A stretch of DNA of 64,000 bases from Acidobacteriota bacterium (GTDB taxonomy: Bacteria; Acidobacteriota; UBA6911; RPQK01; JAJDTT01). Position 1 is the first letter of the stretch. Each line of letters starts with the position of its first letter. Made by a program: the position numbers and the translations under genes. A model generated the notes under the pieces. The model worked only from the letters and a program-made list of their open reading frames with translations. It did no database searches and was not told the DNA's origin. Location: the NCBI GenBank assembly GCA_965209055.1, contig OZ242374.1, forward strand, positions 3,136,001 to 3,200,000. Direction: 5' to 3'. Of the stretch, positions 5,029 through 30,130 are shown in pieces.

Positions 5029-5052
5029 CCCCGGAGTGGGGGTTGGAAATCC
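5029..5052. other. attL (half REP hairpin + TTGGAAA core)
   Basis: CCCCGGAGTGGGGG-TTGGAAA-TCC. Confidence 0.75.
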
Positions 5053-5093
5053 GTTACTCTGTGCAGATGAGAAACGGGAATAATCCTTTATTG

Positions 5094-6209
5094 TTAACAG
5101 GTTATCCCAATTCTTCCCTCTAGTTGTTCTCCCTTGGTTCTTACCCGTTGCCTGTTTGTTGCCGGTTGCGTTTGTGAGTCTTCGTTAGCCTGTGCCTCTC
5201 GAATGCTCTGGAGCGCATGCGAACTGACATACCCCGCGTAGCGCATCGTCGTGCTGATGGCCGAGTGCCCCATCAGCTTCTGCACCGTCCTCACGTCCAC
5301 CCCCTGCATCAGCCAGTGGCTGCATCGGAATCGTCTCAGGTCGTGAAATCCGACCTTCAGGCCGACCCTCTCGCCGGCCCGGCGCAGTGGCATGTCGGGA
5401 TTCACCCATCTCGTCCCAGTCCTGCTGTTGACAAAGACGTATGAGGTGTTCAGGAATCGTGGGAGCCCTGCCAGATATCCGGTGGCGTACTGCGACAGCG
5501 GTATCTCCCTCGTCCTGTCGTTCTTGGTGAGTTCCACCCATAGCAGCCTCCGGGACAGGTCCACCCGTTTCCAGGTGAGCGACAAAGCTTCGCCCTTTCG
5601 AATGCCCGTCTCGCCGATTACGGCGATCATGGCTTGCAGGTAGGGGTTGTCCACCGCCTCGACCAGGTCGCGGAACTGTTGAACTGTCAGAGGTCGGAAG
5701 ACCTTCTTCGGTTCCTTCAGTTTGGGGAACCGAATCAGCGGGTGCGTGTCCACCTCTCCGCACTCCAGCGCGTAGGAAAATAGCTTGCTGATGGCGGCGA
5801 TGGCGCGGTTCACCGTGGCCGGCTTCACCTGCTTCTTCCTCTGGGCGACGTAGCGGTGCAGGTCTTTGCGTTGGAACTCCTTCAGGGGAATGTTCCCCAG
5901 CATGGCATTGAGGCTCTTGAACGAACCCTCATAGCTCCGCCAGGAGCGCATGCGAGGTTTGCAATACTCCTCGAGAAAACGCTTGTAGAAGCTCCGGACC
6001 GTCCAGATGGTGCGTTTCCCGCCGGCGAGCTCCCGCTTGAGCTGCTTCCAGGTGCCGTCCAGGATGCTGGACTCGATTCGTGTTTGAAGCGCCTGTGCAC
6101 TCCGGTAGTTGGGGGCGTACATTCGAAGCCGACCGGATCCGTGCGGCCAGTACTTGCTGACGACGAAACGTCGTCTCCCCCGGCGATCCTTCACCTTGTA
6201 GATGCCCAT
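5094..6209 (-). CDS. Tyrosine recombinase / phage integrase (apparently intact)
   Basis: GIRKGE (R), TKN (K), HDLRR (HxxR), LMGH, TTMRY (Y); N-terminal arm-binding-like and SAM-like regions; AGGAGG RBS. Confidence 0.93.
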   Translation of the reverse strand: MGIYKVKDRRGRRRFVVSKYWPHGSGRLRMYAPNYRSAQALQTRIESSILDGTWKQLKRELAGGKRTIWTVRSFYKRFLEEYCKPRMRSWRSYEGSFKSLNAMLGNIPLKEFQRKDLHRYVAQRKKQVKPATVNRAIAAISKLFSYALECGEVDTHPLIRFPKLKEPKKVFRPLTVQQFRDLVEAVDNPYLQAMIAVIGETGIRKGEALSLTWKRVDLSRRLLWVELTKNDRTREIPLSQYATGYLAGLPRFLNTSYVFVNSRTGTRWVNPDMPLRRAGERVGLKVGFHDLRRFRCSHWLMQGVDVRTVQKLMGHSAISTTMRYAGYVSSHALQSIREAQANEDSQTQPATNRQRVRTKGEQLEGRIGITC

Positions 6210-6339
6210 GCATCTCCTCCTTTCTGGATCCGGGTTCTTCGCCATGGGGCGAATCGTACCACGGCTCCAGAGAATCGACGGAGGCGTTCAGGTTCTTTAG
6301 AGCGAGGACGCGGCGGCGCCTTCTGCCGCCGGTTTGGGG

Positions 6340-6790
6340 TGAAACGGATGTCTTTGGCCCTTCGTGGCCGGGAACGGACACGTCAGCAGCCCCGGATCGC
6401 CGCGTGGCGACACCGGCAAGCTCTCCGAGCGCATGGTCGGCGGCTCCATCCGGATCACAACGCGGGACCAAGAGCCCTGGACCCCGACCGGGGTCGAGGT
6501 CCTCCAACGGCGGGCCGATTTCGCCCGGGTCCGCGATTCCGGCAAGCCGTTACGGATGACGGACCGGGGGAACTCTCCCCCCAGACCCCCCAGTGGCGCC
6601 CTCAAAGAGTCAGGCTCACCATGCCGGACTCTTTGAGGGCGCTCCTGTTTGTCGCGTCCCATAAGAATGGGTCCCTCGCGCGGTCTCGGACTGCTTCCAG
6701 CCGGGAGCAGACTTTCTTCCGTAGGGGGCGCTGATTGTGGGGTCAGCAAAACGACGCACCCTGTGGGAAATCTCTGATTTTCCACAGGGT
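6340..6790. repeat. Non-coding segment homologous (inverted) to 28229-29056 and to 16543-16582
   Basis: 6340-6379 vs 16543-16582 39/40 identical (reverse complement); 6380-6414 vs 28644-28678; GTGGGAAATCTCTGATTTTCCAC at ~6763 and (rc) ~28230. Confidence 0.75.
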
Positions 6791-6971
6791 GGGGAGGCTC
6801 GAACCCAGGGCCTCGGCGCTCTCTGGAAGGGATTTTCAGTTGGTATGTGTCTCTTCTTCTTGTCCGATCAAAATCTCTGGTAGGGCAAGGGTTCAACTCC
6901 ATTTCTCGCGGGGCTGAGTCTGGTCCCGGCCTGGACGGCAGGGTGGAGGGAGCGCGCCGGGGGCGGCAGAA

Positions 6972-7223
6972 TCAGGAGCGGGACCTAGGCACGGGATCCC
7001 CTCGCGATTTTTTCCGAATCCGGTTCCGAAGAGCATAGACCCAGATCAACGCGCCGCGGAGGGTCAGAGGACTCCAATCAAATGCTTCGGCTTTTTGCCG
7101 ATGCCAAACGATGAATGAGTCGCAGAGGTTAGCGGCCAAGTCCCATTGGCGATTGTGTATTGCCGCCCGGATCGCTCCGGCTTGCGCTTCATATTCGCCG
7201 TCCCAATCCCGAGAATTCTTCAT
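6972..7223 (-). CDS. Small phage-like hypothetical protein
   Basis: 83 aa; ATGA overlap with the upstream ORF. Confidence 0.5.
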   Translation of the reverse strand: MKNSRDWDGEYEAQAGAIRAAIHNRQWDLAANLCDSFIVWHRQKAEAFDWSPLTLRGALIWVYALRNRIRKKSRGDPVPRSRS

Positions 7224-28102: not shown

Positions 28103-28684
28103 GGTCTGGCCAAGAGTATCATCAATCGAGAGGGGTCGGAGCTGGTCGGTTTCGAACCGACGTTTCCTGAGCCTCAGTCAGGTGTGTTGGCCAAGATAAA
28201 CAGTCTCCAAGTTCGAACGGTATCCCAACGTGGAAAATCAGAGATTTCCCACCGGGTGAGCCCTCTTGCTGGCCTGACAATCTGCGCGCCCCACGGACGA
28301 AAAACCGCTTTCGTCCGGAGGGTCACTCAGGTTTCCCTGACTGGCGGACCAAGAGGCACTCTTTCTCCCAGCGGATCACCTCCAAGACGGTGGCCGTTCA
28401 AGAGTCCCCTCCTTTGGTAGTGATCTTGATGACCCGCCCCACCAGGTTCTTGGAGAGCTTGCCGGTGATGTCCAGTTAGGACGACGCCCAGGAGCAGTCT
28501 TCGAGCTTGCAGGGGTGCCCTGAGATTTCGCAGGTGTTTTGCCATCGACACCGTATAGGTTGGACAGGCGCCGGGCTGGGGGCTATTGACTGGCAGCACA
28601 GATCAGAGCATCACCGAGCCACGCTGAGCGGTTCGGCCTCGGGGGTGTCGCCACGCGGGGATCCGGGGCTGCTAACGTCCGTTC

Positions 28685-29016
28685 GTAACCGTTCGGTCAG
28701 GCCGTGGAAGATCGGTCGATCGGCATCCTCGCCGCAGTGATCAATTCCATTTGGGTTGCTGTCGGGCTTGAACCACTCTTGGCGGCGGCAAGACCTCCCG
28801 GGGAAAGGATAACGGCAGGTGATCATCGGCCGAAAAATTCTTGCACGGCACGCGATCCGACTGCATCGTTCCGACACCATGGGTCAAATTACCGCTCTGG
28901 GCCTCCATCCCGTGGGAGGTGGAAGAGTGGCGCTTCGTCAGGTGCTCACCCCCATTGAGCGTGGGACCGCAGGCCCGGCTCAGGAAGTCGATCCCCACGG
29001 CTTGACCGAACGGTTA
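28685..29016. mobile_element. IS66-like non-autonomous element (MITE), 332 bp
   Basis: IRs GTAACCGTTCGGTCAGGCCGTGG / CCACGGCTTGACCGAACGGTTA; 8-bp duplication GTCCGTTC at 28677 and 29017; empty site at 6372-6379. Confidence 0.7.
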
Positions 29017-29149
29017 GTCCGTTCTCGGCCACGAAAGGCCAAAGACATCCGATTCATCCCGGTGGAGAGAATGCGGGGAAGAGCGGTGGTGGAAATTCTA
29101 TAAATCTTTTATTTTAAATGGTTTAAAGACTTTATAGAAACAGTCCTCC

Positions 29150-29456
29150 AGGGATAATTGAAACGGGAGCGACCCCCCCAGGGGGTGTTGCGCAAATGTG
29201 AATGCGCAACACCCCCACGCCCGCACCGGGCAGCAAAAAGGGGGGGGCGCTCCCGTCCACCTCCATTTTCCCCGTGCGGCCACCCGGTGGCCGGAAATGG
29301 GGCCGTAACTGACTGAAAGGAAAAAAGATCGGGGAGAGTGCATTTGTGCGTCACCGGGACCGCTTTTTGTGAATCCACCCCCTTTGTCCCATTCACATCC
29401 CGGATCGGGCGCGAGACCCCCTTTACGCACTGCCGAAACGAACCATCATAAGCCTT
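29150..29456 (-). repeat. Hairpin module A, copy 4 (inverted)
   Basis: ACGGGAGCGACCCCCC...GGGGGGCGCTCCCGTCCACC; perfect inner stem GGGGGTGTTGCGCA/TGCGCAACACCCCC. Confidence 0.85.
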
Positions 29457-30105
29457 TGCGACTGCCAAGTGCGTTCACCGTCAATCACGACCTGGAAGGA
29501 GCGAATTTCCGCCGCTGGTTGCACCTCGACCGCCCGCTTCAGTGCGACCGTCACCCCGCCATAAGAGACGAATCGGCGGCAACCAAGTCTTTTTCGGCGT
29601 TTCCGATCGGCACGCCGGTTTTACGCCCAACTGTCAAAACATTGGATGCGTAGGATGGCCCCTGTCGACCTGAAACAGGTGGATGAAGGGTCTGGCACCT
29701 TTGAATCGGAGGCGTGAGAAGGAAACCTGCGCAGAATGGCGGCGCGGCGTATTTCGTGGTAGCGTCCAACCCATGATTCTGGCCCTTGCGCTTCTCCTCG
29801 CCGTCGTCGCCTGGATCTGCTACGCCGTCGCCCGCGCCCTCGACGCGAGTCTTGAAGAGGCGGACTGCCAAGCGGCTGCGGTGTTGGTAAACGACCGTCG
29901 AATCGCATTCACGATGTCTCCGAGCATCGGGAACACGAGGTAAGGGAAAAGAGCGTGTCGGCTTTCAGGAGCAAATTCTACTGCCTGTTTGTTGCCTGTT
30001 CAGCACGCCAGACATGGGGAGTCAACCACTTTACCGATTCGGCGAAGAACCCGGTAATCCATTGAAAACGGTAATGTTTGGTAGTTATTGACTGAGGGAC
30101 GGTTG

Positions 30106-30130
30106 GGATTGGAAAACCCCCACTCCGGGG
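30106..30130. other. attR (TTGGAAA core + other half of REP hairpin)
   Basis: GGA-TTGGAAA-ACCCCCACTCCGGGG; 30115-30130 is the exact reverse complement of 5029-5044. Confidence 0.75.

Follow-up and report, generated by a model that had tools for sequence, protein, structure and literature searches.

A family of tyrosine-integrase elements that appears to use REP palindromes as attachment sites in an Acidobacteriota genome

The 64,000-nucleotide stretch of an Acidobacteriota genome analysed here (hereafter the window) contains an island, spanning positions 5050-30108, that is probably an integrative element inserted by its own tyrosine integrase into the centre of a repetitive extragenic palindromic (REP) sequence. 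We place the probability that this island and others of its kind were inserted site-specifically into REP palindromes by the integrase, with exchange taking place in a 7-nucleotide centre, at roughly 0.8. A preliminary description of the same window had proposed that an integrase exploits REPs as many landing sites, and this proposal has gained support from 25 further elements in the same genome and from elements in all eight genomes of the same genus that we searched. The earlier reading is extended here by the size of the family, by an apparent origin of the lineage at tRNA-Arg genes, and by a cargo that includes many predicted defence genes.

The island is bounded on both sides by the heptamer TTGGAAA, read directly at positions 5043-5049 and 30109-30115. 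This 7-mer by itself carries no weight, because it occurs 850 times when both strands of the 6.08-Mb genome are counted. The left outer flank, CCCCGGAGTGGGGGTT (5029-5044), is the perfect reverse complement of the right outer flank, AACCCCCACTCCGGGG (30115-30130), such that joining the two outer flanks yields a perfect 16-bp stem with the loop GGAA, and joining the inner flanks yields GGATT-GGA-AATCC. All of these features read as the preliminary description had claimed. Random joins of genome sequence gave a perfect stem of 8 bp or longer in 16 of 3000 cases, with a maximum of 10 bp; the 16-bp rebuilt stem is far beyond chance. Sequence identity between the left and right attachment sites (attL and attR) of the island is limited to TTGGAAA, with mismatches immediately on either side, and the same confinement of identity to 7 bp is seen in the subfamily of elements with the core TAGGAAA. 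The hairpin pattern in the window is real, and the lower G+C content of the island (58.8%, versus 62.8% for the genome) gives it a foreign character.

We interpret the two flanks as the halves of a split REP hairpin. The left half (5029-5042), which is the reverse complement of 30116-30130, would represent the left arm of the bacterial attachment site (attB), and the right half (30116-30130) lies 5 nt from the stop codon of the neighbouring rmlD gene. The TTGGAAA copies at attL (5043-5049) and attR (30109-30115) would correspond to the 7-bp overlap within which strands are exchanged.

The rebuilt site has the architecture of the REPs found elsewhere in the window, a point on which the preliminary description also proved correct. 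Copies composed of GGAG followed by GGGCGATT-TCC-AATCGCCC start at positions 39304, 39385 and 39466, close variants are located at 34685 and 52441, and the central TTTCCAA of these REPs is the reverse complement of the core. The three copies between 39304 and 39484 are identical and are arranged in tandem with 81-bp spacing, and each is a potential free landing site for elements with a TTGGAAA core.

Throughout the genome, REP-like families that share the GGAG, stem and loop arrangement include about 100 copies of GGCGATT-NNN-AATCGCC and 139 copies of GGCGGTT-NNNN-AACCGCC, and they are among the top repeated 14-mers. These are short, G+C-rich palindromes with many copies and a conserved 5' tetranucleotide, as is characteristic of REPs. 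Many palindromes that match the cores of known elements are unoccupied, including 79 of the form GGCGA-TTGGAAA-TCGCC and eight of the form GGGGA-CTAACAG-TCCCC. The hairpin class used by the window island is rare, with eight GGAGTGGGGG and 12 CCCCCACTCC half-sites, and intact copies elsewhere in the genome are restricted to one with the centre TTGGAAA and one with TAGGAAA. REPs such as these were presumably spread by REP-associated tyrosine transposases (RAYTs).

A 15-mer, TGCCTGTTTGTTGCC, that lies inside both ends of the island occurs 46 times in the genome (26 copies on the plus strand and 20 on the minus strand), and every listed copy resides at the end of a related element. BLAST searches with the island ends recovered 28 integrase ends and 30 far ends, from which 26 paired elements could be assembled. 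These elements range from 2.7 to 25 kb and total 261,429 bp, or 4.3% of the genome. The register of their junctions is constant: at one end, outer sequence is followed by the 7-nt core and then by TCC(C)G leading to CTCTGTCC, and at the other end GACAGTTGGGA is followed by the same core and then by outer sequence. The cores are CTAACAG in 10 elements, CTGTTAG in seven, TTGGAAA in five, TAGGAAA in four and TTAGAAA in one, a tally of 27 that comprises the 26 paired elements and one extra CTAACAG element. One paired element is located at a contig end and lacks an assembled left junction.

Outer flanks and core rebuild a perfect palindrome in all 25 testable pairs, with stems of 5-16 bp, and the stem reaches at least 8 bp in 20 of these 25 pairs compared with the 16 of 3000 random joins noted above. 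Furthermore, the distance from the integrase gene to the junction is constant across all 26 elements, and the gene retains an intact reading frame, as judged by our filter, in 22 of them. Two copies separated by 1.56 Mb are 100% identical over 2796 bp, and three pairs of elements carry identical integrases. Recent spread is indicated by this degree of sequence identity.

Some related ends do not form simple pairs. In the region G000:C1:474732-484589, two far ends with the cores TTGGAAA and CTAACAG face each other over ~10 kb, and the interval contains no integrase end; other orphan ends are present at 416690, 2499711, 4556561 and 4708655. All of these are likely to be rearranged or decayed elements. 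At another locus (L123, G000:C1:6053300-6069400), two inverted elements flank a 2.3-kb segment that lies reversed next to the right flank in six relatives (G001, G002, G003, G004, G006 and G008). We considered and rejected a simple empty site here, since the segment, located between the two inverted elements, is inverted with respect to those relatives. The elements at this locus seem to have mediated an inversion.

The preliminary description had suggested looking in related genomes for an empty hairpin between rmlD and the RAYT-like gene that borders the island, and such a site exists. In G001, a genome of the same genus, the RAYT-like gene and rmlD are adjacent without an island, and the hairpin GGAGTGGGGG-TAGGAAA-ACCCCCACTCC is unbroken, in two copies, with the two halves that are separated in the window being continuous. 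The left flank of the window aligns to the core of the first G001 hairpin and the right flank aligns from that core onward, with an overlap of exactly 7 nt. Another element, E4644899, is absent from five of five relatives, whose corresponding flanks are 105-373 bp apart, and G001 has at this position an exact unbroken REP with one copy of the core. E5216601 is likewise absent from five of five relatives. For E2974098, the empty-site comparison is uninformative because its left flank is multi-copy in the relatives.

The enzyme encoded next to the left junction (5094-6245, minus strand) is a 383-amino-acid open reading frame (ORF) whose likely start, MGIYKVKD, is at residue 13 (nt 6209). Its translation matches PF00589 (E = 1.1e-25; 90.8 bits, with the cut-off at 27.1) and PF02899, which represent the catalytic and SAM-like domains, and it contains HDLRR, MGHS and TMRY motifs. 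With the catalytic Arg, His-x-x-Arg, His/Trp and Tyr positions all present, the enzyme is a member of the tyrosine recombinase (phage integrase) superfamily. Its nearest relatives in the PDB are integrase chain 5c6k and XerA, XerC-like and XerD chains, accompanied by HP1 and other integrases. Residues 13-95 resemble arm-binding domains by language-model features only, with the nearest ESM Atlas clusters carrying PF02920, PF14657 and PF09003 (scores of 0.94-0.96).

The island ends have the appearance of a phage-like attachment site (attP). The left copy of TGCCTGTTTGTTGCC (5149-5163, plus strand) is a candidate arm-type site in the P' arm, located 100 bp inside the left core and overlapping the codons for the C-terminal tail of the integrase. 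The second copy (29982-29996) is in direct orientation in non-coding sequence, 112 bp inside the right core. Among 25 left and 25 right arms that were aligned, the 15-mer is invariant or nearly so. Because it is coding in the left arm and non-coding in the right arm, it must be conserved at the DNA level, and we regard these 15-mers as putative arm-type binding sites. The conserved far-end arm (P arm; 29941-30108, plus strand) contains the second 15-mer, ends with GGGA beside the core, and has 30 matches in the genome. Overall, the 7-nt core of attP is bordered by GGGA on one side and TCC(C)G on the other, and each side has a conserved arm of ~100-125 bp that carries one 15-mer. As in lambda-type systems, whose overlaps measure 6-8 bp, are the same in both partners and are bordered by inverted core sites, the 7-nt core is shared between attL and attR in 25 of 25 pairs, and in attB it is bordered by palindromic stems.

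The origin of this system can be traced through a remnant that lies just inside the integrase end. In the window island, positions 5050-5081 (minus strand) match the 5' half of the genome's tRNA-Arg(tct), whose anticodon is UCU, at 24 of 32 bases, and the match ends at the anticodon-loop position. The 32 nt inside every integrase end are the reverse complement of such a decayed tRNA-Arg(UCU) 5' half, comprising the acceptor strand, the D arm and the anticodon stem's 5' strand. Over the elements, 22 to 28 of the 32 bases agree with the genome's own tRNA-Arg(tct), and the best of 20000 random 32-mers reaches 18 of 32. The 7-nt core sits exactly at the position of the anticodon loop.

Relatives retain what appears to be the ancestral arrangement. 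G003, from the same genus, has an intact tRNA-Arg(tct) beside the integrase gene, and its far end, ~47 kb away, consists of TTAGAAG and the displaced 5' half. In G035, which belongs to another family of the same order, integrases that are 70% identical reside beside tRNA-Arg(tct) and tRNA-Arg(tcg), and one far end adjoins a tRNA-Arg 5' half with TTCGAAG. The crossover region in these basal relatives spans the anticodon loop of real tRNA-Arg genes. In addition, a 1.9-kb contig (L059) has a fragment of an 85% identical integrase within tRNA-Arg(tct).

Far-end DNA was detected in eight of eight same-genus genomes, with one (G003) to at least 20 matches each, and in one of 32 genomes outside the genus. 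The elements of the same-genus genomes occupy REP-type palindromes with the junction at the central 7-nt core. Twenty far-end junctions from relatives comprise 16 REP-type half sites, two tRNA-Arg 5' halves, one tRNA-half-like sequence and one that could not be placed, and 21 integrase-end junctions comprise 16 of REP type, two at tRNA-Arg and three loci without a junction. Additional cores encountered in relatives are CTAGAAA, CTGGAAG, CTGGAAA, CAGGAAA, AGGAAAG, CTAAAAG, CTGAAAG, CTGACAG and TAGGAAT, such that at least 13 overlap variants exist in one genus. One far end (L021, G004:C1:410610-411000) is connected by CTGGAAA with sequence that resembles a tRNA half for ~28 nt and then diverges; this arrangement may represent an attP-like junction or a tandem array.

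An integrase tree was built from 34 rows, representing 22 of the 26 elements from the window genome and 12 relatives, and was rooted on G035. Four elements of the window genome and two loci from relatives were left out because they lacked an intact frame by our filter or lacked an intact frame, respectively, as was one short row. G035 forms the root, G003 branches next, and all 31 REP-inserted rows fall into one clade with a Shimodaira-Hasegawa-like approximate likelihood ratio test (SH-aLRT) value of 92. Within this clade the proteins differ little (branch lengths of ~0.03) and the cores differ. The vestigial tRNA half in all REP-inserted copies, together with the basal relatives in tRNA-Arg genes, identifies these enzymes as an anticodon-loop integrase lineage. 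From these sequence comparisons, the lineage appears to have been retargeted from tRNA-Arg to REP hairpins through changes in the 7-bp overlap and then to have multiplied.

Insertion of homologous integrases at tRNA genes had been named beforehand as an outcome at odds with REP targeting. Most homologues are indeed in REP-type sites, and the basal ones in G003 and G035 are in tRNA-Arg genes. We view the latter not as a refutation but as an explanation of how the REP habit arose: the REP-inserted copies keep the tRNA vestige, and in the tree their integrases make up a single clade that branches above the enzymes targeting tRNA genes.

In the mechanism that we favour, the island would be an integrative element moved site-specifically by its own tyrosine integrase. 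Its attP would present a 7-bp overlap between the short inverted repeats GGGA and TCCG, with arms of ~100-125 bp that each carry TGCCTGTTTGTTGCC, and the integrase would pair this site with a chromosomal palindrome of the same central 7 bp and exchange strands within those 7 bp. The stems would serve as core sites and the 15-mers as arm sites, and tyrosine-recombinase chemistry would demand that the overlaps of the two partners be identical. The ancestral target would have been the anticodon stem-loop of tRNA-Arg, with the 7-nt loop acting as the overlap and the element bringing a new tRNA 5' half. Variants of the attP overlap (TTGGAAA, TTAGAAA, TAGGAAA, CTAACAG, CTGTTAG and others) would then have matched the centres of REP hairpins in the genus, which have the geometry of an anticodon arm in that a G+C-rich inverted repeat surrounds ~7 nt. 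With REP copies numbering from tens to more than 100, there was room for the lineage to expand to 26 elements. The anatomy of the elements, their empty sites, the tRNA vestige and the integrase tree are direct observations, and we infer the cleavage positions, the binding of the arm sites, present-day activity and the rise in copy number as parts of this scheme. For a conservative recombinase, re-integration after replication, replication of the circle, or transfer from cell to cell are candidate routes to a higher copy number.

A different account of target choice is that the integrase reads DNA structure, with the REP, in the manner of an anticodon arm, undergoing recombination either as folded single-stranded DNA or after extrusion as a hairpin or cruciform. 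There are precedents for the use of folded DNA, in that integron integrases acting on attC and XerCD acting on CTX phage DNA both recombine such substrates. The targets of the present family share geometry over sequence, because the REP stems that flank the core vary (GGCGA, GGGGA, GGGGG and ACGGA are all used), and attP is itself a small palindrome. Moreover, Xer and integron-type models give the highest scores for the catalytic domain, though these fall well short of the respective cut-offs; for the integron integrase model TIGR02249, the match is partial and reaches 65 bits versus a cut-off of 265. However, the ~100-125 bp conserved arms, the repeated 15-mer and the identical 7-bp core suit an ordinary duplex recombination between attP and attB. 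Likewise, the genome has 52 GGCGG-TTGGAAA-CCGCC sites, which offer the right core, and none of them holds an element, indicating that the stems count to some degree and pointing to some reading of sequence. We consider recombination of folded REPs to be quite unlikely.

Very improbable, in our estimation, is a scenario in which another enzyme, such as a RAYT-type Y1 transposase or some other transposase, moves the elements and the integrase is a passenger. REPs are the substrates of RAYTs, and both the window island and E1143782 reside beside RAYT-like genes. On the other hand, the constant spacing of integrase and junction extends from 26 of 26 elements to the relatives inserted in tRNA genes, whose layout is that of classical tRNA-gene (tDNA) islands, and none of the three RAYT-like genes found in the genome is inside an element. 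The island's two DDE transposases are located in its interior and vary from element to element, which argues against another transposase. Finally, the perfect 16-bp inverted repeats of the outer flanks could be imagined to be the terminal inverted repeats of a transposon, or a chance repeat at the ends of an acquired region, but we give this notion almost no credence, as it is already contradicted by the uninterrupted hairpins in G001 at the same locus and at the E4644899 locus, by the frequent occurrence of the same palindromes unoccupied in the genome, and by the recurrence of the pattern in 25 of 25 elements with different REP classes.

Several observations weigh against insertion into REPs by the integrase and temper our confidence in it. 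First, the centre of the empty G001 hairpin, TAGGAAA, is one base off the TTGGAAA of the window. Second, at the E5216601 locus the relatives lack not only the element but also the REP. Third, a nearly invariant integrase takes varied stems yet avoids the 52 sites with GGCGG stems. Fourth, the N-terminus of the integrase (residues 13-85), where an arm-binding domain might be expected, gives no Pfam match up to an E value of 5. Fifth, we found no excisionase, in that small ORFs beside the integrase gene or at the far end match no family, and no second clear gene was seen in the minimal 2.7-kb elements; given the small size and diversity of such proteins, this negative counts for little. Sixth, contigs from four public short-read runs (sponge and coral-reef metagenomes), compared with a 16-kb stretch that includes two small elements, stop at the element junctions, and they contain no empty-site or circle joint, so that no recombination product was seen, a result that is uninformative on activity either way. 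Lastly, the genome appears, judging from its relatives, to be a single-contig metagenome assembly, with an estimated contamination of 7.4%, and assembly errors are therefore possible in repeat-rich regions.

It is instructive to compare this family with established systems. The tDNA islands that target the anticodon loop (Williams' sublocation class A; Islander) are alike in having a tyrosine integrase by the junction, a crossover in the 7-nt loop and a symmetric stem, and they restore the gene that they split. The basal relatives are ordinary members of this group, as an intact tRNA with a displaced fragment is found in G003 and integrase-adjacent tRNA-Arg genes are found in G035. In contrast, the window island and 24 other paired elements reside in REP palindromes and keep only the decayed tRNA half. 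ARAGORN and Rfam searches called no tRNA at the left end of the window island, nor at either of its ends, and so it is not a tDNA island. The family is also unlike tDNA islands in being multi-copy in one genome and in carrying a tRNA 5' half, which is rare in Islander, where 159 of 3919 islands carry such a fragment and 2083 anticodon-centred sites are recorded among the same 3919 islands (PMC4383910).

The REP-targeting insertion sequences (ISs) resemble our elements in target choice only, in that REPs are used as many equivalent intergenic sites with insertion in or near the loop. These ISs, which include IS1397, ISKpn1, IS621 and other IS110-family elements, are 1-2 kb in length and encode DDE or DEDD transposases, and IS621 uses a bridge RNA. 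Our elements differ in having a tyrosine recombinase with attP arms, in extending from 2.7 to 25 kb, and in the lack of a transposase at their ends. In the literature that we could search, which did not cover subscription journals and supplements, we came across no case of REPs serving as attB for a tyrosine integrase.

Lambda-type integrases (lambda, HK022, HP1, P2 and Tn916 Int) are alike in that identity in a 7-bp overlap sets the target between inverted core sites, in having conserved arms with a repeated motif, and in combining a catalytic with a SAM-like core-binding domain. The present family departs from them in that it targets not a single locus but a family of repeats, and in that at least 13 natural overlap variants exist within one genus; its arm binding is putative, and no excisionase was found. 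Among lambda-type enzymes, HK022 is described as tolerant of overlap changes (PMC7736782). The integron integrase with attC and XerCD with CTX phage likewise involve a tyrosine recombinase that acts on imperfect, multi-copy palindromes, but our elements form no cassette array, are dispersed single insertions, match the integron model weakly, and have arms of the duplex type.

The island lies between two genes that are outside its boundaries. On the left is a RAYT-like Y1 transposase gene (3745-4731, plus strand) that matches PF01797 with 28.2 bits (cut-off 23) and aligns over the whole length of the NCBIfam model REP_Tyr_transpos with 47.6 bits (E = 1.5e-12), below its cut-off of 80. This gene is flanked by REPs both in the window genome and in G001. 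A second RAYT-like gene is located at G000:C1:1142970-1143203, ~600 bp from the integrase end of E1143782, and two of the three RAYT-like genes found thus have an island in a neighbouring REP. On the right is rmlD (30136-30996, minus strand), of the dTDP-4-dehydrorhamnose reductase family (PF04321; E = 1.9e-84).

Within the island, a backbone segment next to the integrase gene (6505-6876) is common to the minimal 2.7-kb elements and is 93.9% identical to positions 1285-1658 of E2974098. Searches of Pfam, NCBIfam and PADLOC gave no match for the ORF that overlaps this segment (6297-6902). The island also encodes another integrase, of a different kind, on the plus strand in two ORFs within 7614-8837, the first (7614-8078) with Arm-DNA-bind_3 and Phage_int_M domains and the second (8094-8837) with Phage_int_M and PF00589. 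The same segment is also present in E3394726 and E3925224, and the split gene, which is either cargo or a nested remnant, suggests a nested or captured element.

Further cargo includes a thioredoxin-like protein with a TIGR03435/DUF3738 domain (9522-10796, plus strand) and a GmrSD-type nuclease (12466-14349, plus strand; PF03235, E = 3.3e-28; PADLOC HEC-05, E = 2.9e-213), which is a candidate anti-phage defence gene. Two ISs inside the island encode DDE transposases, one at 14516-16312 (minus strand; PF01609) and one with DUF772 at 19957-20913 (minus strand; PF01609, E = 1.7e-28; PF05598), and a sigma-70 region 2 protein is encoded at 18514-19101 (plus strand) with a weak match to PF04542 (E = 1.7e-6). 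A Pfam search of 20 further island ORFs left most without a family.

We also scanned 98 non-integrase ORFs from 20 loci in 17 other elements (one of them partial), with the 2.7-3.1 kb elements and E6059282 excluded. The commonest families are parts of type I, III and IIG restriction-modification systems, GmrSD, reverse transcriptases, a Cas1, mad2, Schlafen/AlbA and DDE transposases. Judging from these matches, the cargo of the sister elements consists mostly of defence genes, restriction-modification among them. The genome contains 58 copies of a 33-nt repeat, GTTTCAATCCACGCCCCCGTGTAAGGGGGCGAC, which is found repeatedly and presumably represents a CRISPR array; one of the 98 scanned cargo ORFs matches the Cas1 family.

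A structured backbone module of ~190-420 bp, represented in the island at 29150-29567 (plus strand), is present near the far end of 26 of 26 elements as one plus-oriented copy. Partial copies in the island are located at 8919-9217, 12387-12528 and 17405-17630 (all minus strand) and at 26088-26186 (plus strand). The module has 66 hits in the genome, 33 of them outside the elements, and its predicted fold has a z-score of -5.83. An outer stem formed by GACGGGAGCG and CGCTCCCGTC, which shows some compensatory changes, encloses an inner 14-bp hairpin. ARAGORN mis-calls some copies as tRNA-Val. The module may act as an RNA, as an origin or as a site of transfer.

We also entertain, with little confidence, the broader idea that the integrase recognizes an anticodon-arm-like hairpin shape, either extruded or single-stranded, together with the 7-nt centre, and not the sequence of the stem. 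If this rather unlikely idea were true, any abundant hairpin repeat could be captured by mutating the 7 nt of attP, and the enzyme would represent a naturally occurring integrase, guided by structure and programmable through its overlap, under which an island once present in single copy became a family of defence islands that multiplies itself.

Regardless of how the hairpin is read, these natural genomes appear to record the stepwise shift of a site-specific integrase from a unique tRNA target to a repeat family, during which the protein remained nearly constant and the overlap diversified. The system offers a testable case of integrase retargeting by overlap swaps, and searches based on tRNA fragments would miss islands of this kind. 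For the organism, REPs would gain a role as multi-copy attachment sites for cargo-bearing, mostly defence, islands, in a family that accounts for 4.3% of the genome.

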